From Thermodesulfobacteriota bacterium (lineage in GTDB: Bacteria; Desulfobacterota; Desulfarculia; Desulfarculales; Desulfarculaceae), in NCBI GenBank assembly GCA_040751985.1, contig JBFMFU010000009.1:1-51326 (forward strand): a stretch of DNA of 51,326 bases, written 5' to 3'. The notes under the pieces were generated by a model. It had not been told where the DNA came from. It did no database searches and was given only the letters and a program-made list of their open reading frames with translations. Shown piece by piece: positions 1,069 to 20,014 of the stretch. The first letter of the stretch is position 1. Each line of letters begins with the position of its first letter. Position numbers and translations under genes: made by a program.

Positions 1069-1071
1069 GGC

Positions 1072-2100
1072 TCAGGGTAGAAACTCCTCCACCGACTCCA
1101 CGTCGATGCCGAGGCTTGCGGCCTCTTCCCGGTTGGCTTTGATAAATGCCTGGAGACGTTCCCGGGCATGGGGATGCGTGGTTTCTTTTTCTGGCCCCAG
1201 GGTCTTGTCCACCCAGGCAAGTAGTATCCAGAAGAAAATAGAACCGCCCACAAGATAGTCGGAGAAAGGGCTGGTTGCTATCACCGAAGCGGCAAAAGAG
1301 TCGGCCTCCCGTTCCTGGTTGCGGCTCACCTTGAAGTTGCCGGCGCGGCCCAGGGTGTGCCCCAAGACTATGTGCCCCAACTCGTGGCCCACGACGTTCA
1401 TCAGGATCGCGGCGGCGTAGGAGCGAGCCAGGCAAAGTATTTCCTCGTCGCCAAGACTCGCTGTCAACCCGGTTTCCGCCAAAATGCCCTTTGCGGCCTC
1501 TTTGGTCAGATTTCCCGCCCCGGAGACAATCCTGACGCCCAGGCCCTGCACGGTTTGAATAAGCGTGCCCCGGGCGGCAAATGATTTATGCCTCCGGTCG
1601 GCCCCCAGGCCCAGAGCCATAAGCCGGGCAGTCCGGGTCATGCCGCCGTGCACAACCAGGTATGGGGGCTCTATGCTTAGTTCTGGGATTGTCTGATCCG
1701 TAGCAAAGGCGTTGACCTTGTCGTCCGCGCTGGCGTAGATCAAAGTCGTCTCGCCCGCGCGCGTTCGATAAAGGTGATTTCCCTGCACATGAGGGGAATG
1801 AAAAACAAACTGGGCCATCTGCATGACCTCAGGGGCTGATACTTCCAGGCCGTTCCAAGCCTCCCCTTCCAGGGAGACCCTCTCATCCATGTTCCCAGGA
1901 TCAAGGCTGGCTGACGGCGTCGCCAGAGTCCCCATCGGCCAAGCGTGCCCTGGGTGCGCAGCCTGGCGCTCCAATCCCTGTCGCTGTCCGGCATCTTTGT
2001 GATGTGCGTCCCCGTCAAGTAACGGTGTGGTGGAGGCGTTACAATGCGGGCATGACTCCGCCATCACCGATACTTCGGCTCCGCAGGACTTACACCTCAT
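1072..2100 (-). CDS. zinc-ribbon fused ImmA/IrrE-family (M78-like) HExxH metallopeptidase
   Basis: N-terminal CKSCG...CPHC ribbon. C-terminal VVGHELGHIVLGH plus NQEREADSFAASVI matches the ImmA/IrrE HEXXH...EREANxFAAxLL signature. No predicted TM segments. Start overlaps the stop of the upstream kinase gene. Confidence 0.7.
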   Translation of the reverse strand: MRCKSCGAEVSVMAESCPHCNASTTPLLDGDAHHKDAGQRQGLERQAAHPGHAWPMGTLATPSASLDPGNMDERVSLEGEAWNGLEVSAPEVMQMAQFVFHSPHVQGNHLYRTRAGETTLIYASADDKVNAFATDQTIPELSIEPPYLVVHGGMTRTARLMALGLGADRRHKSFAARGTLIQTVQGLGVRIVSGAGNLTKEAAKGILAETGLTASLGDEEILCLARSYAAAILMNVVGHELGHIVLGHTLGRAGNFKVSRNQEREADSFAASVIATSPFSDYLVGGSIFFWILLAWVDKTLGPEKETTHPHARERLQAFIKANREEAASLGIDVESVEEFLP

Positions 2101-3262: not shown

Positions 3263-3313
3263 TTAAGCTCACTCCACCTGGCATGAACGAATCAGACAGG
3301 CTGGCTCTTATGG

Positions 3314-5335
3314 TTACCGCACCCCCTGGCCGCAGGAGTTGCAGAAGCTGGCGCCGGGGCTCAGAGGCAGGCCACAGCTTGGGCAGTTACTGGCAACGCC
3401 GCTTTGAACGTGGAGCAGCGGCGTGCCAGGGGGCGGGTACACCACCTGGGGCCCCTGGCGGGAGCTACGCAAGGCCTCCAAGGCGACCTCCTTGAAGTCC
3501 TGCCGTGTCTGCTGCTGCTCCCGGCGATAACCCTCGGTGACAAGTTCGCGTTCTTTGAGCATGCGTTCGTACAGATTCTTTATTTCCTCGGCGCCAAGCC
3601 CCTTGAACCGCTCCTGGAAGGCCTTGGCTACCTCGGGCGAATGCTTGGCCGCCTCGGCCAGGATCTGCTCCTCGCTCCAACTGCCCAGAACCTCAGTCCT
3701 CTTCAACTCGGCAAGCATGGCCGCTTGTTGCGGTCCGGCAATCGAGATTAGTGCTTCGACGGATGCCTCGGAAAGGGCTCTTATGCGTTCCAACTCCAAC
3801 TGCTGTTCATGGGCCCTCTCTTTGAGGCGCAGGGTCAGATCCCTCTCCTTTTGCTCGGCCTCCAACAGCATCTGCTCTCTTGCGAACCTCAGCTTGCTGG
3901 CCCGCATTTTGTCCAAGATGGCCAGACCAAACTCAGTCTTGGCTTGCTGGATGCGCAGCTTGATGGCTGCCTTCTCTTCCTCATTGCGGGCCTCGGCCAA
4001 ATCCCGTTCCAGACGATTTTGCTGGTCCTTAAACTGCTCCTCCCTCAGGGCGGCCTTGCGTTCCCTCTCCAGGGCAAGCTCGCGTTCAAAACGTATGCGC
4101 TCAGTATCCAGCTTGGCCTTGAGCAGGTCCTGCTCCAGAGAGGCCTCGCCCATTAACTCCAGCCGGCGAATCTCCAGGTGCTGCTCAAGGGCAAGCTTGG
4201 CCAGCAGATGCCTGCGGGCCAATTCGTGGTCTTCCTTCTGCTCACCGAAGGAGCGGGTTAGCTCGTCCATCTCCTCTTTGCGCAGCAGCCGGTCCTTGTC
4301 CACCTCCATTAGAAAGGCCGCCAAGGCCTCTTCGCTGCGGACCTCGTCCATCTTGTCGGAGTTGACCACCTTGCGCATGCGGGAGAATACGTCCACCCGC
4401 TTTTCGGCGGTCCCCAGCTTTGTGGTGGCCTCGTAGATTTCCTGCAGTTCTTCTTGGTTGAGAACCTCAAAAAGCTTTCTGCGGCCAGTCAGCTTGCTTT
4501 CTTTCTCCCAAACTTGCAGCAGGAGGTCCTCCTCCACTCCCTGTAAGGCGTCATACCTACTGTGGCTCATGCTTAACGTCCGGAACTGCACCAGCTCCAT
4601 TCCGTAGAGCTTCAGGCTCTGTGAGAGGTGCCTCTCGGCCTCAACCGCCAGGCGCTCCTTGACCTTGAGCTCGGAGGAAATCTCCTTGGCGGTCATGGCG
4701 CCGACCGAGTCGCGGAGGGCGTCGCGCACCTCGTTTCGCAGGAGGTCGGTCAACTCGTCAATGCCCAGGGAGGTGCGCCCCTTGAAGAGGTTCAGGTAAA
4801 ACACCTCGGGATGCTGGACCCGGAAAGCCAACTCGGTTTCCAGCTTGACGAAAAGGGGGTCGGAGGTTTTGAGCCCTCCCACGCCCAGGCGCACCGGGGC
4901 GATGCCCGCATCCACCAGCACGACCTTCACGGAGCGGCCCTTGCCGAAAAACGCCTTCACACGGTCGCCCATCGTTTCCAAGGTATGGCGGCCAGGGGCC
5001 AGGCGGTCGATGAGCTTGCCGTTCACAAAGAGCAGGGCCTCGGTTCCTTGCTCCACGGCCAGGCCCTTCTTCAGTGCCGACTCGATGTCGTACCCCTCCA
5101 GCAAGGTGGCGAAGTCCTCCGCGGTCCGGCGCCAGGCCTCTTGCACGACCACCGGCCCTCGCTCACCCGGCAGCCGCCCGCCGCAGCTCATGCAGAACCG
5201 GTCCGCGCTGCCCACCGGCCTGCCGCAGGAGGGGCACTGCCCGCCGCCACCGGAAATCGGCAGGCCGCATTCGGAGCAGAAGTTGCTGCCCCGCGCGTTC
5301 TTTTTCCCGCAACGTGTGCACCGTTCCTGAGACAT
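3314..5335 (-). CDS. zinc-ribbon / SPFH (band-7, flotillin-like) / long coiled-coil / C-terminal zinc-ribbon protein
   Basis: N-terminal CTRCG..CSECG..CPSCG..CMSCG ribbons. Central SPFH-like block (LLFVNGKLIDRLAPGRHTLE...VKLETELAFRV). About 300 aa of E/K/R/L heptad-rich coiled coil. C-terminal CPSCG...CNSCG ribbon. Confidence 0.65.
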   Translation of the reverse strand: MSQERCTRCGKKNARGSNFCSECGLPISGGGGQCPSCGRPVGSADRFCMSCGGRLPGERGPVVVQEAWRRTAEDFATLLEGYDIESALKKGLAVEQGTEALLFVNGKLIDRLAPGRHTLETMGDRVKAFFGKGRSVKVVLVDAGIAPVRLGVGGLKTSDPLFVKLETELAFRVQHPEVFYLNLFKGRTSLGIDELTDLLRNEVRDALRDSVGAMTAKEISSELKVKERLAVEAERHLSQSLKLYGMELVQFRTLSMSHSRYDALQGVEEDLLLQVWEKESKLTGRRKLFEVLNQEELQEIYEATTKLGTAEKRVDVFSRMRKVVNSDKMDEVRSEEALAAFLMEVDKDRLLRKEEMDELTRSFGEQKEDHELARRHLLAKLALEQHLEIRRLELMGEASLEQDLLKAKLDTERIRFERELALERERKAALREEQFKDQQNRLERDLAEARNEEEKAAIKLRIQQAKTEFGLAILDKMRASKLRFAREQMLLEAEQKERDLTLRLKERAHEQQLELERIRALSEASVEALISIAGPQQAAMLAELKRTEVLGSWSEEQILAEAAKHSPEVAKAFQERFKGLGAEEIKNLYERMLKERELVTEGYRREQQQTRQDFKEVALEALRSSRQGPQVVYPPPGTPLLHVQSGVASNCPSCGLPLSPGASFCNSCGQGVR

Positions 5336-5357
5336 CGCGCCCCTCCTCCCCGGATTA

Positions 5358-6323
5358 CTAACTTCGAGATGCCAGCCGGTTGTTCAGATCGGCCAGCCTC
5401 TCGTTGATATGACCGAGAACGTTCATGGTCCCCCTCTGGGAGCCGCCGCCGGCCTCGCGGCGCAGGCGCTCGGTCAGATGCTTCAGGTCTCCCAGCTCAT
5501 GGTCAAAGGCCTTGTCGAACCGCGCCAACCCCTTGAGGTCGCCCTTGTCCGCCGAGCCATAGCGGGCGGCCTGCAGCATGTTTCGCAGGGCGTCCATGTC
5601 CATGCGGGCCTTGCGCAATGCCAGCGCCACCTCGCTGAATTCCTCGCCAGCGAATTTTCCCTCCGCCTGCTTTATATCGCCCGAGGCGCCATCCAAAAGG
5701 GACAGGAGTCTCCCCCGCTGCTCCACCCCCGTCCCCTCCATTTTATGAATCTTGCGGCGGGAACGGGCCCTCAAGCGCCAGGCTGCCAAAAGGATGGCAG
5801 CCAGCGCTGCCGCCGCCAGTATAGCCTGGTTTTTATAGGGCCATACGGCCAGGCCGGTATAACTTTTGGCAAGCACCACCTTGCCTGTTTGCACCGAGAT
5901 AAGGCTTATGTGGGCGGCGGCCTCCACCTGCAGGATGCCGGTGTGCTGCCGGAACCCGTCTGCGAACAGAATAGCCTGCACGCCTCTGATCTGGCCGAAT
6001 TTCACACGATCCCGGCGGTTTATGAGATCGCTGACCTGAAGCCCCTGCTCTTTGACGATCTGCTGCAGACGCTTTCGCTCCACCAATACGAACCGGGGAT
6101 CGGCCTGCACCGCCGCGCTCAGGGCGTTGAACAACACCCCCCTGTCGTCCTTGATATCGGCAATGGCGATCCGGGTCACCCCGCTCAGACCAGGCAGGGA
6201 GCGGACGGCTTCTTTGGCTAGCTGGGCCGCGGCCCGGTCCAGCAGGTCGCCGGCCTGGGCGGGGACGGCTGCCAGCAAAAGCGCCGCGACAAGCAGGATC
6301 AAGGCAAACAGACCCTTTTTCAT
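5358..6323 (-). CDS. membrane-anchored protein: signal/TM, periplasmic CsgG/LpoB-like domain, second TM, cytoplasmic coiled-coil tail
   Basis: ORF 5358-6368. Likely start is MKKGLFALILLVAALLLAAVPAQA at 6323, preceded by GGAGAG. Second hydrophobic stretch is ILAAAALAAILLAAW. Domain assignment is weak. Confidence 0.5.
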   Translation of the reverse strand: MKKGLFALILLVAALLLAAVPAQAGDLLDRAAAQLAKEAVRSLPGLSGVTRIAIADIKDDRGVLFNALSAAVQADPRFVLVERKRLQQIVKEQGLQVSDLINRRDRVKFGQIRGVQAILFADGFRQHTGILQVEAAAHISLISVQTGKVVLAKSYTGLAVWPYKNQAILAAAALAAILLAAWRLRARSRRKIHKMEGTGVEQRGRLLSLLDGASGDIKQAEGKFAGEEFSEVALALRKARMDMDALRNMLQAARYGSADKGDLKGLARFDKAFDHELGDLKHLTERLRREAGGGSQRGTMNVLGHINERLADLNNRLASRS

Positions 6324-6745
6324 TCCTAGCCTCTCCAGCTTGGGGTTCATCATATCATCGGCCGCCAACAGGTTTTAGGAATTCCTTGTTTTTGCGGTAT
6401 CAGGCGGGTTATGTCTTTTTCCTAACGATCTGCGCCGCCTATCGCCAACTCCCTCGGGGGATGAGTATTTATAATCGTTCTAACTCAATGATGTCCTCGC
6501 TATTCTGCTGGGTCACTAGACGAGCAAGCAAAGCAATTTTATGCCCTGATTATAATGATGCGTTCGCGCTTCTTAAGACCATGGCCCCGCCCGCTTTTTC
6601 GACTGGAAGGCGCTAAACCCGGAAAACTTCTGAACGCGTCCGACAAAAACGAGCACCAGGTTTTGTAGGGATTTTGTAGCGACCAGGGGGCTACGCCCCC
6701 TGGACCCCAGGAAAAAGCCAAAGCCAGGGGTAAAGGGGTAAAGGG

Positions 6746-8521
6746 TCAAGGGGTAAGAATCCTGGCGACACGAAAGCCTACGTCGAAGTCGCGGCTCGTA
6801 GGGTCGCTCCTGAAGCGGTTCGCTGAGCGCAGGCTCCTGGGATTGTGGCGCCAGGACCCGCCGCGGATCACCCGGCCGCTCCCGGACGACGGCCCCTGGG
6901 GATCGCGGGTAGGGGAGGCACTATAGGAACCGTACCAGTCGCTCACCCACTCCCACACATTCCCGTGCATGTCGTACAACCCCCAGGCGTTCGGCTCCTT
7001 TTCACCCACGGGATGGGTGCGACCTCCCGAATTGTCATCGTACCAGCCATACTCCCCAAGCGCAGACTCGCTGTCCCCAAAACTGTACCGGGTGCTGCTG
7101 CCCGCTCGGCACGCGTACTCCCACTCCCCCTCCGTAGGCAACCGGTAGGTGCCCGCCTTCAGCCCCTCCTCCTTATTCAACCTGCGGGTAAACTCAACCG
7201 CTTCCTCCCAACTCACACCCTCAACGGGGAAACCCTCATCACCCTTAAAAAAACTCGGATTGCTCCCCATCACCGCCTTCCACTGACCCTGCGTCACCTC
7301 AGTAACACCAAGATAAAATGGCTTGGTTATTTCCACTCGGTGCTGAGGTCGCTCACCCTCGTAACCATCCTCATCGCTCTCGGGACTCCCCATCATAAAA
7401 CTACCAGCAGGGATAAGCGCAAACTCCATCCCCACGCTGTTGGTAAAATGCTCCTGGCCAGATGCCGGCCCATTGCCAAGAGCACCCTCACTCGGTGCTG
7501 CCTCCCCTCCGGCCAACCCCCCTTCCTCAGCTACCCTGTGCCCAGGCTCCAAAACACGCCCCAGCGCCTCCACCAGCTCTCCCGCCGTCTGGTAACGATC
7601 ACCTGCCTCCGCCTGAAGGGCCTTGTCAATCACCTCGTCAATTTCAGGGGGAAGACCTGGCATAACCTCGCCGGGAAGCCTGAAACGACCCTGAGGTACC
7701 TTACCCGTCAGCAGCTCATAGAGAACCACTCCCACCGAGTATATGTCGCTGGCAGGGCCAACATCCCGCGACGCTGACAACTGCTCCGGAGACATGTAGT
7801 ACGCCGTACCCATCGAAAGAGCGCTGCTGGTCAGCTTCGACGGCGAAAGCATCTTGGCCAGCCCAAAATCCAACACCTTCACCCGCCAACCAGGATATTC
7901 CCCCGTCACCACCACGTTGTCTGGCTTCAGGTCCCGGTGAATCACCCCCTGCCCGTGCGCGTGCCCGAGCGCATCAAGCACCGGCAACAGTAACGATAGC
8001 GCTTCCTCAAACTTGAATACCTGATCAGCACCTCTGCGCTCCTCCAAAAGCTCCCGCAGGGACCGGCCAGAAACGTACTCCATCGTGAAAAAACGCCGGC
8101 CCTCAAACTCGTGAGAGTCGTGTACCTTCACTATGTTGGGATGGCTCAGCAACCGGGCAGCCAATACCTCCTGCGCGAAACGGTCCTGGGCCTCAGGCAG
8201 GGCCACCAGCTCCGGGGAGATCAACTTCAGGGCCACCTCTTGGCCCTTGAGCAGCCGGTCACGCACCAGCAACACCTGCCCCATGCCCCCCCGGCCAAGC
8301 TCGCGCACCACCTCGAAACGGCCCGCTATCACCTCCCCATCGCCCAGGTCCGACAAAGGCGCGAATCCGCCATCATGCACTACAGTCTTGCCGGACAACG
8401 GGCCCGTCTTGCCGGACAACGGGCCCGTCTTGCCGGACAACGGGCCCGATAGCTCCAACCCGCAAAACCCGCAACGATACGCACCCTCAGGATTTACTTT
8501 TCCGCATTGTGAACAGCGCAT
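6746..8521 (-). CDS. zinc-ribbon / Ser/Thr protein kinase / FGE-sulfatase (SUMF1-like) domain fusion protein
   Basis: MRCSQCG..CGFCG ribbon. Kinase motifs HRDLKPDN, DFGLAK, SPEQ. C-terminal formylglycine-generating-enzyme-like domain (WEWVSDWY, GGSWRHNPRSLRSANR). Contains a 3x GPLSGKT repeat. Confidence 0.85.
   Translation of the reverse strand: MRCSQCGKVNPEGAYRCGFCGLELSGPLSGKTGPLSGKTGPLSGKTVVHDGGFAPLSDLGDGEVIAGRFEVVRELGRGGMGQVLLVRDRLLKGQEVALKLISPELVALPEAQDRFAQEVLAARLLSHPNIVKVHDSHEFEGRRFFTMEYVSGRSLRELLEERRGADQVFKFEEALSLLLPVLDALGHAHGQGVIHRDLKPDNVVVTGEYPGWRVKVLDFGLAKMLSPSKLTSSALSMGTAYYMSPEQLSASRDVGPASDIYSVGVVLYELLTGKVPQGRFRLPGEVMPGLPPEIDEVIDKALQAEAGDRYQTAGELVEALGRVLEPGHRVAEEGGLAGGEAAPSEGALGNGPASGQEHFTNSVGMEFALIPAGSFMMGSPESDEDGYEGERPQHRVEITKPFYLGVTEVTQGQWKAVMGSNPSFFKGDEGFPVEGVSWEEAVEFTRRLNKEEGLKAGTYRLPTEGEWEYACRAGSSTRYSFGDSESALGEYGWYDDNSGGRTHPVGEKEPNAWGLYDMHGNVWEWVSDWYGSYSASPTRDPQGPSSGSGRVIRGGSWRHNPRSLRSANRFRSDPTSRDFDVGFRVARILTP
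8390..8452. repeat. in-frame 21-bp tandem repeat (2 perfect + 1 variant unit) encoding GPLSGKT x3 in the kinase-FGE gene
   Basis: gccggacaacgggcccgtctt repeated head-to-tail. The paralogous kinase at 1-1068 has a single unit at the equivalent position. Confidence 0.9.
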
Positions 8522-8808
8522 AGTTAGCCTTTACTAATAAATATGATCCATTGTTCCAATTAATTGACGAATAGGTCCGCAGGCATTATGCACAACTTTT
8601 GTGCATCCTGTCCAGAACAGACCCGAGGTTAGCATTCCAGATGCTCCCTCAAGGGGGCTGTTTTGTTTGATGTTGAAAAGCAGGCGGTTGCAGTGCGCAA
8701 ATCATTGGATCGAGGTTGTAATAAATATGTTAATATTTGGCCGTACATGGATTCATTCAAAGAGGTTTCTTTGTCAGCATAAAATGCGTTAATTGACCCG
8801 GGCAGCAC

Positions 8809-9738
8809 GTGATGGGCGATAAAGGCGCGCATCAGGATCTCATCCGCAGGCACCTAGACCTGCTTCAGCGGCTTGGCTGGTGGAGGGATGCCGAGCGTTT
8901 CTTGAGACATGAGGCCGCAGGCGTGTTAAGCGATGCAGAGATTCAGTCCAGGCTGCGTCTGGTTCATGAGAAATTAGAAATCTACGGGGGCTCTGGTGGT
9001 ACAGATGACGCTGGCGAGTCTTATATAGGGGAGGACGATGTAGTTTGTTTGAAGAAAGGTGGCATCTCGATCTCCTACCACCTGAAGGATCGCGACCTGC
9101 CAATTGAGCAGATTTATCGCTCCGTGCTGCGCACGGTTTCGACCCTGCGGGAGAAGCTGAGATACGACATTCCCAGGGTGGACATAGCCCTCCACGGGCC
9201 GCTTTCCGAAATACGGGTGGAACGTCCAAGGGCGCTATTGCCGCCACGTTCCTGGGTGGACGGCGCCTATGACGGCACCATCAGGATCAAGGCCGGGGGC
9301 GCATACGGGACGGAGCCGCAGCGCATAGAGGTTTTGGTGGCACACGAGTTGGTCCATCAGGCCCTGAAAGACATAAGCAGGGGAGGTTGCCCGCGCTGGC
9401 TGCACGAAGGCCTGGCCTTGTTGCTCTCTCAAGGACTCAACCGGGAATACAGCGATGTTTTGGCAGCGGCCAGACGCGAAGGCGGGCTGGTGCCACCGCC
9501 GGCTTTGGAGGGAGACGAGCTTTTCGACAGCTCGCACGAAACCGCTCGCCTGGCCTACGCCCAATCTTTTAGCATGGTCAAATGGCTGCAGGGCAAGCTG
9601 GGGTGGGATGGCTTGCGGAGTCTGGCCGAACGCAGCGGCCGCATGTCCCTCGAGCGGGCCCTGCACGATAACAGCTTGAACTATTTCCTGCTGGAGCGGG
9701 AGTGGCGAAGATGGATGAACGCATCCGATCAGATGTGA
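8809..9738 (+). CDS. putative MA-clan (gluzincin-like) zinc metallopeptidase
   Basis: HELVHQALKD followed about 18 aa later by WLHEGLA (HExxH + E). Divergent from the kinase-FGE gene across an AT-rich 287-bp promoter region. Confidence 0.55.
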   Translation: MMGDKGAHQDLIRRHLDLLQRLGWWRDAERFLRHEAAGVLSDAEIQSRLRLVHEKLEIYGGSGGTDDAGESYIGEDDVVCLKKGGISISYHLKDRDLPIEQIYRSVLRTVSTLREKLRYDIPRVDIALHGPLSEIRVERPRALLPPRSWVDGAYDGTIRIKAGGAYGTEPQRIEVLVAHELVHQALKDISRGGCPRWLHEGLALLLSQGLNREYSDVLAAARREGGLVPPPALEGDELFDSSHETARLAYAQSFSMVKWLQGKLGWDGLRSLAERSGRMSLERALHDNSLNYFLLEREWRRWMNASDQM

Positions 9739-11339
9739 TCACGCCTGACCAGCAGGACAAGGGAGACGCCGCCTCGGGCGATACGGACTTCAAGGTGCTT
9801 ACTCAGGCTGAAAGTCCTGGGGATGTGGAGCCAGATTCTCCGGAAGGCGATCCGGCCCGAGACGTTCCTTTCTGCCCGCATTGTCAGGGCGAACTCGAGG
9901 ACAGCGGTCACATCTGTCCCTCTTGCGATGCCTACCTGGGCCTCTGTTTGAGAGTGTTGGACAAGGTGCATGAGTTGGGCAGGTCTCATACTCTAGAGAT
10001 GGAGGTTCAGAATCGTTCTGCTAAGCTCTTGCACATCTCAGAAATGAGAGTGAGTTGCGACGGTTTTCGCGAAAAGGAAAGCGGGGTCCGCCCTCCTGGG
10101 AAACTACAACCAGGAGGCAAGAGGAAGGCCGAGGTACCCGTCGTCCCCGTTGACGGAGATGAGCTTTTAGCGAGATTTCAATTGGCAATCCGTGACGATA
10201 GCGGTCAGGCCGTGGCTGAAGGCGCGAGAAAGATTTTTGTAAGAAACGTTAGTTCCGAAAAAAAGGTGCGGATTGAAGTAGGGGGGGACCTTTCCGGGGC
10301 CGATCTAGGGGGTCTCATCAATTCTTGTCAGGAAGAAGGCGGCAATCAAGAGGTAGAGATCAAGATAGTTGGTGATGCCCGGGGAGTGGACATAAATCCA
10401 CTTGTTTTTGCTCCACGCAAAAACGTATCCCCCCCTCAGAAAAGACATCCGGAGTGGCTCAAACTCGATCATTGGATTGAAGTGCCCTTATATATCTATC
10501 AAGAGTTTCTTCAGTTGGATAAAGGGAAATCCACCCCAACTCAGTTAGAATGTCCTTCAGAACTCAAGAACCTATCTGATATAAAATCAGCTTGGTTGCG
10601 ACCACTCCAGCCCGAAAAAAACAGAAAGGTGTTTCGCCTATTTTTCAAACCAAAAATTTGCATGGGGCGGGGCGACCATCAGGATATACCATGCAAGGTA
10701 TTTAACCGAGCAGGTAATGTCCTAAAGAAACAGACCCAGTCAATCAGTTCAGAGCATCTGACCCTTTGGGCAGATAGCTTTCAAACAATACTCGAGGACC
10801 ACAGCACCAACGGCACTCTTGTAGGTGAAAAACGTGTCCAGGGGGAACGATGCGGTCTTTCTGCGGGCGATATGATTAGCCTTGCCGGTGTGCTAGCTTT
10901 CCGTTACCGCGAGTTTCGTGATTTATCTGAACTTTATTCCACACTCTATAAGAAGAATATTAAAACTACCTTGCAGCGCGCTAGTCATTTGCGGTTGTCT
11001 TTGGAAGGGCGCAAGTTCTTAGAATACCCCCTTTGTGCAATTCGTCTTAAACCGGTGGGCATCGGCAGAGATGTTTTTGAGTATTTCATCGTGCCTCGGC
11101 AACTCGATATAGGTAGCGGACATCAAAATGCCTTGAAAATAGACCATCCCAGCGTTTCCAATATGCACGCGCGACTCTTAGTGAGCGATCAAGGGGTGCG
11201 GTTGTTGGATCTCGAGTCTGATCATGGAACGTTTATCAATGGGCGTCGGCTTAATAATAACGAGGCCTGTCTACTTTCTGCCGGGTGTTTGATTCGTTTT
11301 GGAGAATTGGAAGTTGAGTTGGATTGTGATAGCTGTTAA
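9702..11339 (+). CDS. zinc-ribbon protein with two FHA (phosphothreonine-binding) domains
   Basis: CPHCQG...CPSCD ribbon. Two FHA signatures: GRGDHQDI...SSEHLTL...DHSTNGTLV and GSGHQNALKIDHPSVSNMHARL...SDHGTFINGRR. Start overlaps the 3' end of the peptidase gene. The 10.0-11.3 kb stretch is visibly lower in GC. Confidence 0.75.
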   Translation: MAKMDERIRSDVITPDQQDKGDAASGDTDFKVLTQAESPGDVEPDSPEGDPARDVPFCPHCQGELEDSGHICPSCDAYLGLCLRVLDKVHELGRSHTLEMEVQNRSAKLLHISEMRVSCDGFREKESGVRPPGKLQPGGKRKAEVPVVPVDGDELLARFQLAIRDDSGQAVAEGARKIFVRNVSSEKKVRIEVGGDLSGADLGGLINSCQEEGGNQEVEIKIVGDARGVDINPLVFAPRKNVSPPQKRHPEWLKLDHWIEVPLYIYQEFLQLDKGKSTPTQLECPSELKNLSDIKSAWLRPLQPEKNRKVFRLFFKPKICMGRGDHQDIPCKVFNRAGNVLKKQTQSISSEHLTLWADSFQTILEDHSTNGTLVGEKRVQGERCGLSAGDMISLAGVLAFRYREFRDLSELYSTLYKKNIKTTLQRASHLRLSLEGRKFLEYPLCAIRLKPVGIGRDVFEYFIVPRQLDIGSGHQNALKIDHPSVSNMHARLLVSDQGVRLLDLESDHGTFINGRRLNNNEACLLSAGCLIRFGELEVELDCDSC

Positions 11340-11496: not shown

Positions 11497-11997
11497 TTAA
11501 CCATCCCAAACCAAATCCCTGCTTGTCCTCGCCTTTCCCCGCCTCGCCCAGCGAAACAGGGGTGGATTATCACGGTGAGGTGCGTCTTTCACCAGGCGAT
11601 AGCGAAATCTGCCTGCCTCCCGGATATACCCACGTCTACGCATCTCCCGCAGCCATTCGAGCGCACCCCTGCGATGCACTCCAGATACCAGGATTAAGTC
11701 TGCTGACGAGAACGCCCCCCGCAGAGTTAGCTGATGCGCTGCCCGCCAAAGGGTCCTATAAGCTTCCCTCTTGCGCTTGTCCGGCTTTTCTATCAGCCGG
11801 CAATGGCAATCAGGCAGCAAGAGAGCCTCCCCGCGCGCAACCAGATACTCCAGGGCCTGGTTTACCTGGCAGAGAGTGTGCCCGGCCCCGTCCACCAGAC
11901 ACGCATACAAATCCCCGACCGAGGCCACGCCGCCCGCCTCCTTCAACAAGGTCCTGATCATCACCGGCCTGCGTTGGCAGGCGATCCTGCCGGCCAT
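11497..11997 (-). CDS. hypothetical protein with two winged-helix-like segments, translationally coupled to the MuB-like gene
   Basis: ORF 11497-12075. An internal ATG at 11997 overlaps the stop of the upstream AAA+ gene. No recognisable catalytic motif. Confidence 0.4.
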   Translation of the reverse strand: MAGRIACQRRPVMIRTLLKEAGGVASVGDLYACLVDGAGHTLCQVNQALEYLVARGEALLLPDCHCRLIEKPDKRKREAYRTLWRAAHQLTLRGAFSSADLILVSGVHRRGALEWLREMRRRGYIREAGRFRYRLVKDAPHRDNPPLFRWARRGKARTSRDLVWDG

Positions 11998-12776
11998 CAC
12001 TTCACCATTTTGAGATTGGTCCCAGCCGCCCTCAGCCTGCTGCGAGATATCTCGGTTGTCACCTTGCGGGCCCATTCCAGACTTACCTTGGGGGAGCCCT
12101 CTGTCTTGGCCAAGACTTCCAGCCGGGCCAGGTGCACAATGGTCTGGCGGAGGTTGCCGTGGGTGGCCCGGCGGATATGCTCGGCAGACTGATCATCCAG
12201 GGTCAGCCCAGCCAACTCCGTCGCCAAGCTGACCACCTCCTTTATGCCCAGCGGGGTAAACTCTTCGCTCATGCGGACCCGGTCCCAGAATTGGGGAAAG
12301 CGGCTCAGGGCCTTGGCCAGGCCGTTCATGCCCACCAGCAGTACTGGAGCGCCAGAGGAGTCGTGCAGATCACGCACCGTGTCCAACAGGGGAGGCGTAT
12401 GAGGGGGCTGAGTGCCCTTGGCCAGGTAGTCGGCCTCATCTATGATCAGCAGCCCATTGCCCAGAGAAGACACGCCCAACCGCTCTGCCAAGGCCTCAGC
12501 CGCCCGGGCGAGGTTGTCGGCCGCACTGACCGTGGCCAGGCATCCCAGCCCTGCCAAGATGGCCTTGAGCATGGAGTTGGGAGTCCATACACGGGCCGCG
12601 GAGACGTACACGGCGCCGGTTCTGGCGGCCAAGTTGTCCACGGCTCGGGTCTTGCCTCGGCCAGCCGGACCATAGATCAGGCCCAGGCGGGGCTCTCCCA
12701 TGGAGGCATTGGTTATGGACTCCACCACCTCCCAAAGCCGGGCCACGTTTCTGGTCTGGACAAACTTGGCCTTCAT
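11997..12776 (-). CDS. MuB-like AAA+ ATPase (transposition target-DNA activator)
   Basis: Walker A GPAGRGKT, Walker B LLIIDEADYL. Start ATG at 12776 overlaps the stop of the transposase (ATGA coupling). Confidence 0.75.
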   Translation of the reverse strand: MKAKFVQTRNVARLWEVVESITNASMGEPRLGLIYGPAGRGKTRAVDNLAARTGAVYVSAARVWTPNSMLKAILAGLGCLATVSAADNLARAAEALAERLGVSSLGNGLLIIDEADYLAKGTQPPHTPPLLDTVRDLHDSSGAPVLLVGMNGLAKALSRFPQFWDRVRMSEEFTPLGIKEVVSLATELAGLTLDDQSAEHIRRATHGNLRQTIVHLARLEVLAKTEGSPKVSLEWARKVTTEISRSRLRAAGTNLKMVK

Positions 12777-14848
12777 GGGTCTGGGTCCTCCTCCCCATAG
12801 ACCACGCAATTGCGCAGGCCCAGGGCAAACTCCTCGAATTGCCGCCCACCCAGTTGCTCCCACATGGAGGTCTTTTGGAATTTCTCCAGGAAGGCCAAGT
12901 CTTCTTGGGAGTTGCTTAGGCCCTCCCGCTTCCTGACCAGTATCCACACTGCCCGCTCGGAAGGCTTCATGAAGATCGGGCGATGGTGAATATCGATTTC
13001 CTGACCCCAGGGGTCCAAAACTTTCTCACTGCCGTTCTCAAAGGATTCCGCTTCCCTTCTCTCGGCCTGGCCCAACATCTCCCGCCTGGCCTCGGCCGCC
13101 GCTCGCAGGGCCGGCAGGTCCAGGTTGGGGGGCGGCAAGGCCTCCAGGGGTTTGGTCTTGGCGGCCACCTCGTCCAGCCTGGCCCGTTCCAAATCGTCCA
13201 AGTCCAGGGCCTTGACCCGCTCAAGGGAGGCCTTGCGCTCCAGGCACCGGATGGACCACCAGCGCTTCTTGCGCTCCCTAATCTGTTTGGGCGTGAGATT
13301 CAGGCGATCCAGGTCTGTGGCTATGCAGATGAATGCACCACTCTGGTCGAATACGTAGAGAATGCCGGCGTCTTCGGGATCAGGCCGCACCCAAACCCGA
13401 CCCGAGGGCTCCAGGTATAAAAGCTCCTCGGCCGTGTAAAGCCCTCGGTTGTAATGAATGCGGCCTTGGGCCACGCTGCGCGGCTCGGCCGGCTTCAACA
13501 GCAGAAAGAGTTGATCCAGTGGGGCCACCCTTGGTCTCCATCCCTCATCAATGGCCTTCTCCCAGCGCTCCCGGGGAGTACAGCCGATGGTGGAGACTAC
13601 GTGGTTGCTCTCAAAGTCAAGCACCCACTTGTCCACCATCTCCTGCAACTCAGTCAGTGTGTATCTGGTCTCAATGACCTCCGGCCGCTTGGCCAGGCTG
13701 TTGCCCGTATACCCGGTCAAGGTGCGCAGCAGATCAGAGATCAAGTGGAAGACGATCTCCGCATGAGGCTTGAGCTCAGGGCTGTAGCCCGGTATCTGCG
13801 GGGCCTTGATGCCCAGGTCCATGAACAGGGCCTGCACCTGTTTGCTCTGGTAGTCCTTGCCCAGGTCCACGACGACTTCACGGGGTATGCCCATTTGCTT
13901 GAAGGCCTTGAAAAGGGTCTGGGCAATGGGGTCTCCTCCGCCCCTCTCCCACACCCCGAACACCGGCCGCCGGGTCCACACGTCTACCACTCCGATCAGG
14001 GTGCAGCGCCGGCCGTCTGCGGTCATAATGTCCGCCCGGGTGGAGTCCGCCTCCCAGCGCTGGTTGGGCTCGGTGAGGCCGGCGTCCGCTCTTCCCAGAG
14101 AGGGCTGATACCGTCGTTTGAAAAGAGAAGGGTGGTGCAATAACGCCAGGCGGGCCTGCTTGTCTTTGCTGATGCGGGGCACCAAGTTTCGGACCGTGCC
14201 CTGGGCTGGCAGCCTGCGGCCCTTGAATTTGTGGAGTATCAGCTTGTGTATTTTGGCGGCGGTGATCCCCGGCCGGCCCAGCAGGCAGGTCTCGATGAAT
14301 TCCTTGATGTCCTCCCCTATGGCATTACTGCGGTGCCTGCCCCGCCGGTCGACCAGGCCGACCACTCCCCTTTCTTGCAAGACCTTGCGCCAGCGGTAAA
14401 GGCTTCTCTTAGAAAGAGGGCCTAGTTTGACGCTGAGGCTTTCATCAACCAGGCCGCGGTTGAAGTCATCCAGCCAGCGCTTGAAATGCTCCTGCCGCTG
14501 GCCGTGCGGAGCCGGGCTCAGTTCCTTGGCCGCCTCGGCCAGCCTGACCGCCTTGGCCTTGGCCAGGGCCCGCTCCAGGGCGGGCCCTGGGACCCTGTGC
14601 AGCTCAGAGGCGCTTCCCCCTGACTCGCAGAGAAAGGGCACCAGGTCGCACAGGGTGAGTTTCTGGAGGCGGTGCTGCAGAAGCCGCTGCTGGACGTCCA
14701 CTGGCAGGGAAGGGACCTCGTAGTGCTTGACCTTGCCGCCCCGGCCGGGAAGCAGGTGCAGGCGCCAGCCCTTGGACTTCTTCTCAATGGACTGCCGGGA
14801 GACGCCCAGGGCCTGGGCCAGTTGGCTGTTGGTGACAAGTTGGTTCAT
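12773..14848 (-). CDS. MuA-like DDE transposase (rve integrase core) with N-terminal HTH
   Basis: N-terminal LAQALGVSRQSIEKK HTH; DDE core region WEADSTRADIMTADG...VVDLGKDYQS...; about 690 aa like MuA. Follows the ner homolog. Confidence 0.8.
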   Translation of the reverse strand: MNQLVTNSQLAQALGVSRQSIEKKSKGWRLHLLPGRGGKVKHYEVPSLPVDVQQRLLQHRLQKLTLCDLVPFLCESGGSASELHRVPGPALERALAKAKAVRLAEAAKELSPAPHGQRQEHFKRWLDDFNRGLVDESLSVKLGPLSKRSLYRWRKVLQERGVVGLVDRRGRHRSNAIGEDIKEFIETCLLGRPGITAAKIHKLILHKFKGRRLPAQGTVRNLVPRISKDKQARLALLHHPSLFKRRYQPSLGRADAGLTEPNQRWEADSTRADIMTADGRRCTLIGVVDVWTRRPVFGVWERGGGDPIAQTLFKAFKQMGIPREVVVDLGKDYQSKQVQALFMDLGIKAPQIPGYSPELKPHAEIVFHLISDLLRTLTGYTGNSLAKRPEVIETRYTLTELQEMVDKWVLDFESNHVVSTIGCTPRERWEKAIDEGWRPRVAPLDQLFLLLKPAEPRSVAQGRIHYNRGLYTAEELLYLEPSGRVWVRPDPEDAGILYVFDQSGAFICIATDLDRLNLTPKQIRERKKRWWSIRCLERKASLERVKALDLDDLERARLDEVAAKTKPLEALPPPNLDLPALRAAAEARREMLGQAERREAESFENGSEKVLDPWGQEIDIHHRPIFMKPSERAVWILVRKREGLSNSQEDLAFLEKFQKTSMWEQLGGRQFEEFALGLRNCVVYGEEDPDP

Positions 14849-14850
14849 CT

Positions 14851-15186
14851 TCAGGTGTACTCTCCGCTTTTCCCATTGCGGTTGGCAGGGCTAATGTGGT
14901 TTTTTAAATCAGAGGTGACGGGCTTTGGAGAGCGGCTCTTCGGTCGGTTGGATTTGCCCTGCTGGTCGTAGCGCTCCGGCCAGAGTTCTGCGGGGTGCAT
15001 ATCCAGCGCCGCCTCGATCACAGCCTCCATCCGGGGGTAGGGCTTGCGCAGGGCCAGGCCCACCGCGTGCCGGCTAACTCCGCGTTCCCGGCCCAGACTG
15101 GTCAAGGTGTGGCCACGGCGGCGGAGTTGGTATTTGATCCACAGGGGATCTATGGGGGAAGGGTTTTCTTTGGCTAAATTCTCCAT
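14851..15186 (-). CDS. ner: Ner/Nlp-family DNA-binding regulator (Mu Ner homolog)
   Basis: Aligns with Mu Ner: LRRRGHTLTSLGRERGVSRHAVGLAL...AALDMHPAELWPERY vs Mu LKKRGLSLAALSRQFGYAPTTLANAL...NALETKPEVIWPSRY. Confidence 0.8.
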   Translation of the reverse strand: MENLAKENPSPIDPLWIKYQLRRRGHTLTSLGRERGVSRHAVGLALRKPYPRMEAVIEAALDMHPAELWPERYDQQGKSNRPKSRSPKPVTSDLKNHISPANRNGKSGEYT

Positions 15187-15216
15187 GGGGACATATATAC
15201 GTCACTAAAGAGGACC

Positions 15217-15921
15217 ATGTCAACTAAAAAGGAAAATATAACGACAAGGAAGGAACATTCTGCTGAATTGCAGGGCTTTGCAGAGCGATTGCGCCTAATT
15301 TCAGAGGAATTTGGAGGCCCCTATCCCCTCGCAAAGAAGGCTGGATTTTCTCATGGAGCGATGTCGAAGTGGCTTACGGGTGAATCTGAGCCTGGTTTAT
15401 ATAAGGTGATCGCCATTGCAAAGACAGCTGGAGTGCGCTTTGAATGGTTGATAACTGGCCAAGGCAATATGCGAGAGGGAGAAAAGGCTCCTGGTGGGAA
15501 AGACGACTACGTTTTGGTGCCGCTCTACAACGCCAAGGTGGGTGCCGGGCCTGGCACCTTTGTTGAGGGCGAGCGGGAGGTCGTGAAGCTTGCCTTTTTA
15601 AAACAGTGGGTCAAGCAGAAGGGCCTGGCAATAAAGGATCTTGCCCTTGTCATCGTGTATGGCGAGTCGATGGAGCCTACTTTTTCCCACGGGGATGTGG
15701 CCCTGGTGGAGCTCGGCGATGGCGAGATGGTTCGCGACGGCCTTCACGTGCTGCGCATCAATGATCACCTTATGGTGAAGAGACTGCAGCTTCTGCCTGG
15801 CAACAGGATCCGCGTCACCAGCGACAATCCCAGGTACGAGCCCTTTGAAATTGATCTGTCCAAGGAAGGGGATCAAATAAAGGTAGTCGGTCGGGTGGTC
15901 TGGTTCGGCCGAGAGATCTGA
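15217..15921 (+). CDS. phage repressor, HTH (XRE) + S24 LexA-like autopeptidase domain
   Basis: N-terminal HTH. C-terminal S24 region with GESMEP (Ser nucleophile) and downstream MVKRL lysine. Divergent from ner, as in the Mu c/ner arrangement. Confidence 0.8.
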   Translation: MSTKKENITTRKEHSAELQGFAERLRLISEEFGGPYPLAKKAGFSHGAMSKWLTGESEPGLYKVIAIAKTAGVRFEWLITGQGNMREGEKAPGGKDDYVLVPLYNAKVGAGPGTFVEGEREVVKLAFLKQWVKQKGLAIKDLALVIVYGESMEPTFSHGDVALVELGDGEMVRDGLHVLRINDHLMVKRLQLLPGNRIRVTSDNPRYEPFEIDLSKEGDQIKVVGRVVWFGREI

Positions 15922-15952
15922 ACTTTTCCCTCAATAAATAGCGCCCCCAATT

Positions 15953-16066
15953 TTGGTTGCAGGTTAGCTGTTGCAGTTTGTCAAAGAAAACTGCCACAAG
16001 CTGTTAATATATTTAGATTTTACTTGGTTGCAGGTTCGGTTGCAGGTTAGCAGACAGTTTGACAAT
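15953..16066. repeat. cluster of direct repeats (GGTTGCAGGTTAGC/GGTTGCAGGTTCGG and CAGTTTGNCAA) in AT-rich non-coding DNA downstream of the repressor gene
   Basis: R1 15953-15986 TTGGTTGCAGGTTAGCTGTTGCAGTTTGTCAAAG. R2 16024-16066 TTGGTTGCAGGTTCGGTTGCAGGTTAGCAGACAGTTTGACAAT. Confidence 0.6.
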
Positions 16067-16479
16067 CGGCGAATCAATTACCTAAGGAGCAATTTGCGAA
16101 AAATATCCTTAATATTTAATAGTTACACGGATATTCCGAAATCCTAAATGGTGCCATTTATCCAAGCACAACTCCAAATTCCCCTGCACTGGTGGCACCA
16201 CACAAAATCGAATTTTATGTGGGATCCACCGGCTGAAATGAACACATAAGTGCCTCTTGTTCAGAAAAAATCCACATAAATTCAACATAAACACATACCA
16301 AGTTAAGTGATTTCAATAGGATGCCATTTAGAGAATGCGTTCAGGCCTGTCCGTGTAGGCCTGATTAGGGCGATTAATGTGAATCGGCCAGAAAAAATGA
16401 CCCGGTTTCATTTAGCAGTAGCCGGCGCCAAAAGCCGAACCGTTCTCAGCCAAGGGTCACTCCTGAAAAAGGAGGGGTT

Positions 16480-16508
16480 GGCCCACTGGCGCCAACCCCT
16501 TTCATCCT
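16480..16508. terminator. bidirectional Rho-independent terminator hairpin downstream of tRNA-Arg
   Basis: GGGGTTGGC-ccactggc-GCCAACCCC, a 9-bp stem flanked by AAAAAGGA on one side and TTTCATCC on the other. On the minus strand it is followed by CCTTTTT. Confidence 0.7.
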
Positions 16509-16509
16509 C

Positions 16510-16586
<77 letters not shown>

Positions 16587-17685: not shown

Positions 17686-18846
17686 TTAGAGCGCCTCCTC
17701 CTCTTCCTTCACGCCGATGGCCACCTTGTAGAGGATGGTCAGGATCAAGAGGCCGGTGGCGTACACGCCGAAGGTGATCATCAGCTCCAGGCCGGTGGGC
17801 GCGTACTCGGTGATCTCGTGCAGGGGGTTGGGCACGAAGCCGCCGGCGATCATACCCATGCCCTTGTCGATCCAGGTGCAGACGAACACCAGCACGCAGG
17901 CGACGGCCAGCACGGCGGGGTTCTGCCGGGTGCGCGGGTTGACCAGCAGGATGATGGCGACCACGCCGGAGGCCAGGGCCGTCCAGACCCAGGGCACCAG
18001 CATGCTGTGCCCGTGGTAGCCGAAGTAGAGGTACTCCAGGTGGGTCATGTGGCTGGGGATGGCGCTGTAGCCGACCGTGAACACCTCCAGCAGGAAGAAG
18101 AAGATGTGCAGGATGATGGCGTAGGTGACGATCTTGGCCAGGGTCTCGAAGGCCGCCTTGCCGGGGTCGAAGCGGGTGAGCTTCTTGACCAGGTAGCCCA
18201 GCAGGATCAGCACCGCCGGGCCCGCGGCGAAGGCCGAGGCCAGAAAGCGCGGGGCCATGATGGCGGTGAGCCAGTAGCCGCGGCCGGGCAGGCCGGCGTA
18301 GAGGAAGGCCGTGACCGTGTGGATGGACACCGCCCAGGGGATGGACAGATAGATGATGGGCTTGATCCACCCCGGCGGCGCCACCTGCTTGCGCTCGCAC
18401 TCCAGGGTCACCCAGCCGGCCACCAGGTTGATGATAAGGTAGCCATTCAAGACGATCATGTCCCAGAACAGCACCGAGTTGGGCGTGGGGTGCAGCATCA
18501 CGTTGAGGATGCGGGTCGGCTTGCCGAGGTCCACGGTGATGAACAGGATGCACATGATCACCGCGGCGATGGCCAGGAACTCGCCCAGGATGGTGATGCG
18601 GCCGAAGGTCTTGTAGTGGTGCAGGTAGTAGGGCAGCACCAGCATCACCGCCGAGGCGGCCACGCCCACCAGGAAGGTGAACTGGGCGATGTAGAAGCCC
18701 CAGGACACGTCCCGGCTCATGCCGGTGATGACCAGACCTTTGTTGTACTGCACCAGGTAGGAGCCGAAGCCGGCGGCGATGACCACCAGCAGGCCGATGA
18801 GCCAGGCCCAGTACAGCTTGCTTCCGCTTAACGCCTTCTCAAGCAT
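17686..18846 (-). CDS. dsrP: DsrP, NrfD/PsrC-family integral membrane quinone-interacting subunit of the DsrMKJOP complex
   Basis: About 10 predicted TM helices, NrfD-like. Last gene of the dsrMKJOP order. Confidence 0.85.
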   Translation of the reverse strand: MLEKALSGSKLYWAWLIGLLVVIAAGFGSYLVQYNKGLVITGMSRDVSWGFYIAQFTFLVGVAASAVMLVLPYYLHHYKTFGRITILGEFLAIAAVIMCILFITVDLGKPTRILNVMLHPTPNSVLFWDMIVLNGYLIINLVAGWVTLECERKQVAPPGWIKPIIYLSIPWAVSIHTVTAFLYAGLPGRGYWLTAIMAPRFLASAFAAGPAVLILLGYLVKKLTRFDPGKAAFETLAKIVTYAIILHIFFFLLEVFTVGYSAIPSHMTHLEYLYFGYHGHSMLVPWVWTALASGVVAIILLVNPRTRQNPAVLAVACVLVFVCTWIDKGMGMIAGGFVPNPLHEITEYAPTGLELMITFGVYATGLLILTILYKVAIGVKEEEEAL

Positions 18847-18854
18847 GACGACCT

Positions 18855-19625
18855 CTATACCAGGTAATAGACCTGGGGATTGGTGCCCAGGTTGGGTTTA
18901 CGCCGAATGCTGTAGCGCCCCCGCAGCACCTTGCGCAGATCGCTGCCGGCGTTGTTCACGTCGCCGAACACCATGGCCCCGCCGGAGGCCTCGGCGCAGT
19001 AGGGCAGCTCGCCCACCGCCAGGCGCTCGGTGCAGAAGTTGCATTTCTCCACCACGCCGCGGGAGCGGGTGGGGAACAGGGGGTACTCCTTCTTGATGAA
19101 GGGCCGCGGGTCCTGGAAGTTGAAGCTACGCGAGCCGTAGGGGCAGCCGGCCATGCAGAAGCGGCAGCCGATGCAGCGGTGGAAGTCCATCATCACCACG
19201 CCGTCGGCGCGCTGGAAGGTGGCCTTGGTGGGGCACACCCGCACGCAGGGCGGATTGTCGCAGTGGTTGCACATGGTGATGTAGCTCAGGCTGGCGTACT
19301 CTCCGGCCTGGGGGTTGTCCGTCTCCGGGAAGACGTTGACGTACGGCGCCAGCCAGATCCACTTGATGTTCTGCTTGCCGGGGATCTGGGGCACGTTGTG
19401 GTAGTAGTGGCAGGCCTCGGTGGCCGCCCGGGCCGTGGCCGGGGTGAACTTCTTCATGTCGATGGCCATGCCCCAACGCTGGCCCTTGAGGGCGCGGGGG
19501 TTGGGCGTCTCCTGGGCGGCGTCCAGCTGGCCCGGCCGCAGGAGCTGGAGACCCACCCCGCCGCCCAGGCCAAGGGCGACGGAGATTCCGGCGATCTTTA
19601 TGAACTCTCTCCTGTCAACGCCCAT
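18855..19625 (-). CDS. dsrO: DsrO, Tat-exported 4x[4Fe-4S] ferredoxin-like subunit
   Basis: Twin-arginine signal RREFIKIAGISVALGLGGG. CxxCxxCxxxCP clusters (CIGCRFCMAGCP, CNHCDNPPCVRVCP). Start at 19625 has a GGAG RBS and overlaps the dsrJ stop. Confidence 0.85.
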   Translation of the reverse strand: MGVDRREFIKIAGISVALGLGGGVGLQLLRPGQLDAAQETPNPRALKGQRWGMAIDMKKFTPATARAATEACHYYHNVPQIPGKQNIKWIWLAPYVNVFPETDNPQAGEYASLSYITMCNHCDNPPCVRVCPTKATFQRADGVVMMDFHRCIGCRFCMAGCPYGSRSFNFQDPRPFIKKEYPLFPTRSRGVVEKCNFCTERLAVGELPYCAEASGGAMVFGDVNNAGSDLRKVLRGRYSIRRKPNLGTNPQVYYLV

Positions 19626-20014
19626 CACTTTTTCTCCTTCGGCACCAGATGGCATTCCCAGCAGAACGGTGCCACGGCCAGGTAGTTGTGGCACTGGTCG
19701 CAGAACTTTTCCTTGCTGTCGTGGCAGCTCAGACAGGTGTTGGTCAGGCTCATGTTGAAGTGCTTGCCGTCGTCGGCGACGTACACGCGGTTGGCATCGC
19801 GCACCACCGAGTCGCGCCAGTCATTCAAGAGCTTCATGTGGCTGGCCCGCATGTAGGGCGTGGCGGCCACGCACTGCTTGGCCACGGTCTTGGCCGGCAG
19901 CACCGGCTTGGGCACCGGCGCCGCCTTGCCCCGATTGCTCCAGAAGGGGAAGGTGAAGATGAGCAGAAAGATGACCAGGCCTATGATTATCTTGCCGCCG
20001 TCGTAGAGCTTCAT
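19625..20014 (-). CDS. dsrJ: DsrJ, periplasmic triheme cytochrome c
   Basis: N-terminal membrane anchor plus CLSCH, CDQCH, CWECH heme-binding motifs. Confidence 0.85.
   Translation of the reverse strand: MKLYDGGKIIIGLVIFLLIFTFPFWSNRGKAAPVPKPVLPAKTVAKQCVAATPYMRASHMKLLNDWRDSVVRDANRVYVADDGKHFNMSLTNTCLSCHDSKEKFCDQCHNYLAVAPFCWECHLVPKEKK

Follow-up and report, generated by a model that had tools for sequence, protein, structure and literature searches.

A group of five genes that resembles the early region of phage Mu is located beside a tRNA-Arg(CCG) gene in a 51,326-bp stretch of DNA, hereafter called the window, from a Thermodesulfobacteriota bacterium of the family Desulfarculaceae (assembly GCA_040751985.1, contig JBFMFU010000009.1). 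The genes encode the repressor c, the small regulator Ner, the transposase A, the ATPase B, and a protein that we call O (Table 1). The sequence-only reading of this DNA described a repressor with helix-turn-helix and S24 domains, ner, MuA-like and MuB-like genes, and one coupled small open reading frame (ORF) in the order of the Mu early region, and all five were recovered in place. It also suggested that the genes are still intact, in agreement with the retained DDE triad and Walker motifs and with ratios of nonsynonymous to synonymous substitution rates (dN/dS) of 0.05-0.18. The interval 11497-16345 appears to be a complete left arm, which extends from a terminus through c, ner, A, and B to O.

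Table 1. Features of the Mu-like module and the adjoining tRNA gene (positions in the window)
Feature	Positions	Strand	Description
O, 166 aa	11497-11997	-	Conserved tandem winged-helix protein; final gene of the conserved core
B, 259 aa	11997-12776	-	AAA+ ATPase of MuB/TniB/TnsC type; AAA_22/TniB (TniB E = 3e-8); phrog_296 'DNA transposition protein' (E = 2e-43)
A, 691 aa	12773-14848	-	Mu-type DDE transposase; rve (PF00665) and Mu-transpos_C (PF09299)
ner	14851-15186	-	Small Ner-like regulator; HTH_35 (E = 3e-18); phrog_769; SfsB/Ner family; divergent from c
c	15217-15921	+	Repressor; HTH_3 and Peptidase_S24 (LexA-like, self-cleaving domain); phrog_4 (E = 2e-52); reads toward the left end
Subterminal left-end region	15922-16296	-	AT-rich; second AAATGGCAC half-site at 16148-16160; three direct AACCTGCAACC repeats
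Three direct repeats GGTTGCAGGTT(A/C)G(C/G)	15955, 16026, 16038 (span 15955-16051)	+	Pattern search
Left terminus (attL-type end)	16297-16345	-	Read inward on the minus strand: CCTGAACGCATTCTCTAAATGGCATCC...; presumed terminal binding site of A
tRNA terminator hairpin	16473-16500	-	Element end 128 bp beyond
tRNA-Arg(CCG)	16510-16586	-	3' end faces the module

Transposase A is covered by the family phrog_310 over residues 1-662 (PHROG scan, E = 2e-64), and its residues D268, D328, and E364 are invariant among 17 homologues. The translation of B contains the Walker A motif GPAGRGKT and the Walker B motif LLIIDEAD. The stop codon of A and the start codon of B overlap in the sequence ATGA, and B and O overlap by one base in TGATG. 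Overlaps of the ATGA type had been proposed for the whole A-B-ORF series, which holds for A and B but not for B and O. B is predicted to be translationally coupled to A, and O to B. The annotated divergent starts of c and ner (15186-15217) are only 30 bp apart. This gap is too short for two promoters, and the true start of c is probably about 13 codons inside the annotated one, as in the related locus L003 (related loci are numbered with the prefix L).

The left end of the element is base 16345, and the terminal sequence CCTGAACGCATTYTCTAAATGGCA adjoins unrelated DNA at at least ten other loci. Every copy starts with CC-TGAACGCATTTTCTAAATGGCATC, and the DNA directly outside differs from copy to copy. 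The terminus motif is GTGCCANTTNNAAAATGCGTTCAGG, the inverted form of which would read ...AAAATGCGTTCAGG. In the window, the TG of the terminus is located at 16342-16343 on the complementary strand, with the extra CC outside the TG. A profile built from the terminal 50 bp was run with nhmmer on the window and the fetched loci, and it detected a single site in the window (E = 2e-16). The terminus of about 49 bp adjoins unrelated DNA in L001, L003, L005, L006, L008, L011, L016, L018, and L023, and the profile also found a diverged terminus in L019-21 and in L004. The mean pairwise identity is 92.6% for the terminal 50 bp, 54-77% for the next 350 bp, and 86.5% for the A gene.

The region between c and tRNA-Arg (15922-16509) is 588 bp long and AT-rich. 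The sequence-only reading regarded an AT-rich region of 590 bp with repeats, together with tRNA-Arg, as the boundary of the module. The region, its repeats, and the tRNA gene are all there, but the boundary is located inside the region, at base 16345, 164 bp from tRNA-Arg(CCG) and 128 bp past the terminator hairpin of the tRNA. The position next to tRNA-Arg thus stands, and because the terminus maps to 16345, the AT-rich region with repeats is the left-end region of the element itself. The subterminal part is conserved to some extent in L001, L003, and other copies. At up to two mismatches, the GGTTGCAGGTT repeats occur only in their 97-bp span of the window, save for one chance-level match, and they are retained in copies with different repressor types. 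They were rejected as end sites, since all three are direct and inverted copies are absent. The half-site and the repeats of the subterminal region may serve as additional binding sites of A or as an enhancer. No long inverted repeats were found between the AT-rich region and 1-11.5 kb of the window.

The inverted terminus was not found anywhere in the window, either by pattern search or with the nhmmer profile up to an E value of 100, and no right end was found up to 7-10 kb downstream in L001, L003, L005, L006, L008, L010, L018, and L023. The sole inverted terminus in all the fetched DNA is located at positions 15613-15658 of L011 (profile E = 2e-7). This right end is composed of two tandem sites, GTGCCATTTCACAAATGCGTT and GTGCCAGTTTGAAAATGCGTTCAGG, and is 298 bp from the 3' end of a tRNA-Phe gene. 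The two ends of L011 are 8.9 kb apart, and the DNA between them consists solely of the core, two IS3-family elements, and a 236-bp piece homologous to an early gene of L004. The flanks of L011 do not match as a 5-bp duplication (TGGCC / GGGAA, or AGTGG / GAAGC, depending on the definition of the flank), and searches for target duplications under both definitions returned only chance matches. Terminal inverted repeats starting with 5'-TG and 5-bp duplications had been proposed as marks of the ends of the module; the left terminus could be mapped, but the window contains neither an inverted partner nor a duplication beyond chance. Ends placed tightly around c, ner, A, and B, which had been named as an arrangement at odds with the sequence-only reading, were found in a single relative, L011.

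Several candidates for a right end were set aside. The sequence 'TGAACATCTCTC...' at 11423 is not conserved in other copies, and inverted AAATGGCA-type sites downstream of O yielded no consistent site. A weak right-end-like sequence in L019, AAAATGCATTGAGG, located 258-272 bp after O, was matched by nhmmer with an E value of 22 and was not relied on. A presumed remnant of a right end in L016, L008, and L006, located upstream of their left ends, was rejected, because the alignment reveals only a 70-bp block common to L011 and L016.

Close relatives of A, with 85-89% amino acid identity, are found in metagenome-assembled genomes of Desulfarculus and Desulfarculaceae. Two of these genomes hold two copies of the element each, which are about 85-89% identical at the DNA level. 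The copies are located in at least eight distinct contexts on the right-hand side and at least ten on the left-hand side, and most are away from tRNA genes. The c-ner segment is mosaic, and some copies have a short helix-turn-helix repressor in place of the S24 type. The genes A, B, and O are intact and their overlaps are kept in nearly all copies. At a dS of about 0.8, A has a dN/dS of about 0.11, B of about 0.05, and O of about 0.18, and the three genes are, by this measure, under purifying selection.

The homology among most copies stops 0-55 bp past the stop codon of O, and 670 bp past it in the pair L005/L023. The DNA that follows O in the related loci was never phage-like in Pfam and PHROG scans. 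It encodes a sulfatase pseudogene and TetR and TRAP genes in L005, insertion sequence (IS) debris and an ABC exporter in L008, CheB/CheR and histidine kinases in L001, and histidine kinases and hemerythrin in L019. Some of this DNA is common to two loci: L005 and L023 have the same 670 bp right of O, including the sulfatase pseudogene, and L006 and L018 have the same gene for a protein of 375-383 residues, while the left flanks differ within both pairs. L003 and L010 differ by a 5.2-kb indel that begins at the end of O, and the left flank is available for only one of these two copies. The DNA on the O side is lower in G+C than that on the left-end side in most loci. In L023, host-like genes and host-like G+C return 2-4 kb past O, without a right end.

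More distant relatives, L002 (49% identity of A) and L004 (60%), have long early regions that include GemA and numerous small ORFs. The left-end sequence of L004 (2913-10001) is located 7 kb upstream of A; genes for an HD-domain protein, two unknown proteins, and an AIRS-domain protein lie between the end and the repressor, and methyltransferase and HATPase genes are found further to the right. Another distantly related element, L024 (1-3384), has four extra genes after O and adjoins a type I-C-like CRISPR-Cas locus (Cas3, Cas5d). Neither the end motif nor a close homologue of A was found in viral contigs, and plasmids and sequenced phages contained only distant homologues of A. Literature searches yielded no description of such a family, which is a weak sign of novelty.

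The DNA immediately outside the left end has peculiarities in individual copies. In L003 (541-1617) and L001 (7497-8150), the left end adjoins the extreme 3' end of a tyrosine integrase gene; both integrase ORFs stop in the TGA of the TGAAC of the element, and the two integrases are dissimilar at the DNA level. L011 (6713-6756) and L018 (3970-3998) have about 30-44 bp (CTTTCATTTTATTTCACCA...) in common directly outside the left end, and the remaining DNA of their left flanks differs. L011 also holds an extra 19 bp outside the left end that resemble a part of the end site. About 190 bp of the left flank of L006 (positions ~230-425) are in common with L008. An IS3-family element of one type is located just outside the left end in L008 (7443-8451), and in L011 (13261-15333) it lies internally, close to the right end of the Mu-type element.

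O has no family in Pfam, NCBIfam, or PADLOC, and it is well conserved among the 21 sequences compared. The AlphaFold model of O (predicted local distance difference test score, pLDDT, of 79) contains two winged-helix domains and a basic tail. This fold matches only generic winged-helix arrays, such as those of SelB and MarR-like proteins. No homologue of O was found among plasmids or sequenced phages. In Pseudoalteromonas phage HS6, a gene annotated as a regulator occupies the position of O after B, and its similarity to O is not significant. From its predicted fold, O may be an accessory DNA-binding factor.

To the right of tRNA-Arg, the window contains a Usp gene followed by the dsrMKJOP operon (17686-19694 and beyond; DsrP and a DsrO-like 4Fe-4S protein). 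Judging from this operon, the host is a sulfate reducer close to the Desulfarculaceae metagenome-assembled genomes. Two relatives with DsrP proteins 87-90% identical to that of the window, L028 and L029, are syntenic with it up to tRNA-Arg and have the terminator hairpin at the same position. In L029, tRNA-Arg is directly followed by an MmgE/PrpD gene, which is absent from the window. Since L029 runs straight into this gene, the window contains at least 16.3 kb of extra DNA, which starts within 128 bp of the left end. The sequence-only reading had proposed relatives lacking the insertion as a guide to its boundaries; L029 places the start of the extra DNA next to the left end, but the far boundary may lie outside the window. 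The contig of L028 (11037-11151), whose DsrP is 87% identical to that of the window, ends 38 bp after tRNA-Arg, a break that a repeated or mobile sequence inserted at this position would produce. The 164 bp between the tRNA gene and the end of the element contain no integrase ORF, and the window contains no direct repeat of the tRNA 3' end.

The G+C content is about 0.60 over 1-16 kb of the window and 0.65-0.72 right of the tRNA gene. The DNA to the left of the module encodes three Ser/Thr kinases, an FHA protein, M48-like and MA-type peptidases, a zinc-ribbon SPFH protein, and a CsgG-like protein. None of the genes in the flanks, which were read over 11 kb on one side and 35 kb on the other, is of phage type; Pfam and PHROG scans of the neighbouring ORFs of the window detected no late genes for head, tail, lysis, or a late regulator. 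The absence of head, tail, and lysis genes after the module, as originally described, thus extends to both sides. The kinase island was not linked to the core in any related locus.

The island (1-11339) may have a role in signalling or possibly in defence. One of its three Ser/Thr kinases is fused to an FGE-sulfatase domain, and two kinases have near-identical N-terminal halves (128-1068 and 7539-8521, 85-96% DNA identity). The kinase encoded at 6746-8521 is matched by PADLOC PD-T4-6 models (E = 4e-71), a result that its kinase domain alone may explain. The 5' part of this kinase gene contains three perfect 21-bp tandem repeats (8385-8447) that encode a repeated GKTGPLS peptide, and the paralogous kinase gene has one copy of the repeat at 974-994. 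One peptidase of the island is M48/Lit-like, and the 3' half of the FHA gene has a G+C content of only 0.48.

Based on the mapped terminus, the intact genes, and the comparison of the copies, we tentatively read the locus as the intact left arm of a Mu-type element without virion genes, with slightly less than even confidence. According to this reading, the available sequence contains no second end of the element, this copy is probably immobile, and the FHA and kinase genes are, on present evidence, to be taken as neighbours and not as established cargo. A Mu-type transpososome requires a pair of ends, and no right end was found within 11.3 kb; therefore, the copy in the window most likely cannot move on its own now. 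By analogy to Mu, the repressor would silence the divergent early promoter until it is cleaved, A would bind the terminal site of about 22 bp, and B would capture the target DNA, with O possibly acting as an accessory DNA-binding factor. The sequence-only reading offered a decayed prophage or a Mu-like transposon with the kinase island as cargo. Decay of a plain prophage accounts for the missing late genes, but not for the common stop after O or for the conservation of A, B, O, and the terminus. It fits poorly with at least eight copies in different places that have the same core, stop after O, and are under purifying selection. The cargo is not evident either, because a right end is missing from the window and these kinases are absent from the related copies.

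Several observations count against a one-ended, immobile left arm. At least eight independent copies break off 0-55 bp past the stop codon of O, and independent losses of the right end should not cluster in this way. A, B, O, and the terminus are conserved in copies that would be immobile. The DNA right of O is common to L005/L023, L006/L018, and L003/L010, the O-side DNA is mostly lower in G+C than the DNA on the left-end side, and the extra DNA relative to L029 starts within 128 bp of the left end. All of these observations fit an element that extends rightward past O. The main rival is a large Mu-type transposon without virion genes that has its core at the left end, as Tn7-like elements do, carries the FHA/kinase island as a passenger, and has its right end left of position 1 of the window. 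The extra DNA of at least 16.3 kb that begins beside the left end, and the G+C content, which is about 0.60 throughout 1-16 kb and changes to 0.65-0.72 right of the tRNA, agree with such an element. It is also favoured by the stop of the family homology just past O, as at a border between core and cargo, by the right-flank DNA that goes along with the core in L005/L023 and L006/L018, by the lower G+C of the O-side flanks in most loci, and by the purifying selection that acts on A, B, and O and on the terminus. However, no right end was detected in 11.3 kb of the window or in 7-10 kb of eight other contexts, and the sole two-ended copy, L011, carries only IS elements and lacks a visible target-site duplication. 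The return of host-like genes and G+C 2-4 kb past O in L023 without a right end, and the kinases being unlinked to the core in every other locus, also speak against it. We therefore regard this explanation as possible but doubtful. The same reserve applies to its general form, in which c-ner-A-B-O and the terminus are the core of a family of autonomous virion-less Mu-type transposons in sulfate-reducing Desulfarculaceae, with a variable right arm of passengers, here the FHA/Ser-Thr-kinase island.

The low dN/dS and the highly conserved terminus of copies that nearly all lack a right end could also be explained if the left end and c-ner-A-B-O were kept by the host or the island for a function other than transposition of the element, such as the rearrangement of DNA or protection from related elements. 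The presence of two diverged copies in each of two metagenome-assembled genomes is in line with such domestication. It is nevertheless unlikely, since the copies have a precise terminus and are found at different sites without synteny, a pattern that indicates transposition and not vertical inheritance, and since known defence families were unmatched apart from the TnsB/TnsC models. A further candidate is a Tn7-like or Tn5053-like transposon that encodes TnsB/TniA, TnsC/TniB, and a target selector and homes to tRNA genes. The solved structure closest to A is TnsB of a type V-K CRISPR-associated transposon (CAST; E = 5e-11), and MuA was not matched; the PADLOC models TnsB_V-K (8e-12) and TnsC_V-K (3e-7) match, as does the TniB Pfam family in the case of B; and the element ends are 164 bp (window) and 298 bp (L011) from tRNA 3' ends. 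Such an identity is, however, very improbable for a module that has no TniQ/TnsD, TnsA, resolvase, or Cas12k, in which O is a tandem winged-helix protein without a match to TniQ, c and ner are features of phage Mu, and A and B match families of Mu-like phages over their full length. Furthermore, most copies are away from tRNAs. Least probable of all, to the point of being scarcely credible, is an ordinary Mu-like prophage with contiguous late genes outside the examined stretch. Although the early regions of the distant L002 and L004 are long and include GemA and numerous small ORFs, the 11 kb and 35 kb read on the two sides of the module contain non-phage genes only, and the right side is host dsr DNA syntenic with relatives. 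An ordinary prophage is thus ruled out for the window, unless its late genes lie on the far side of the kinase island, at a distance of over 11.3 kb.

The one-ended left arm that we favour has the same order and orientation of features as Mu and Mu-like phages, with the left end and c followed by the divergent ner-A-B. In Mu, A is likewise a DDE transposase with a Mu C-terminal domain, and B is likewise a coupled AAA+ ATPase. The ends of Mu carry the sites L1-3 and R1-3. Mu has inverted terminal sites of the TG..CA type that are in tandem at the right end, as seen in L011. The closest sequenced phage, judged by A, is HS6, with 29% identity over 59% of the length of A, and in HS6, too, B is directly followed by a gene with a regulator annotation. 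In contrast to Mu, the module contains no virion, lysis, or late-regulator genes, its terminus has an extra CC outside the TG, and the copy in the window has no right end. The module resembles the Mu early region but does not qualify as a transposable phage, since late genes are lacking and, in the window, so is a second end. Laboratory mini-Mu constructs and naturally defective Mu-like prophages have lost the late region but retain the ends and c, ner, A, and B. L011 resembles a natural internal-deletion derivative of this kind with both ends. Unlike mini-Mu and defective prophages, however, the short form is the sole form found in about 12 independent loci and is under purifying selection, and most copies have no second end.

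A related pair of transposase and ATPase is present in Tn7-like transposons, including the TnsB-TnsC-TniQ set of type V-K CAST, and in Tn5053/Tn402 (TniA-TniB-TniQ). The core of Tn7-like elements is likewise located at one end and followed by DNA that varies between copies, and some copies of the present family are near tRNA genes. Unlike Tn7 and Tn5053, the module has phage-type regulators, and its end sequence is not of the TGT... type. No ORFs for TnsA, a TniR resolvase, or a CRISPR effector were found between 1 and 17 kb of the window. Because TniQ, TnsA, the resolvase, and the CRISPR effector are all absent, the element is not a member of the Tn7 or Tn5053 groups.

Taken on its own, the locus is an ordinary-looking Mu-like remnant, and it is at the level of the family that it becomes an unusual variant. 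The practical yield for the window is an exact element boundary beside tRNA-Arg and the recognition that the kinase island is, for now, at most candidate cargo. Transposition of the Mu A/B type is known from phages and, distantly, from Tn7/Tn5053-like transposons. The family described here keeps the regulators, transposase, ATPase, and end sequence of Mu and never has virion genes. It may represent an intermediate between transposable phages and cargo transposons, or a recurrent one-ended domestication. If the right arm does carry passengers, the family would be a Mu-derived counterpart of the Tn7-like cargo transposons.

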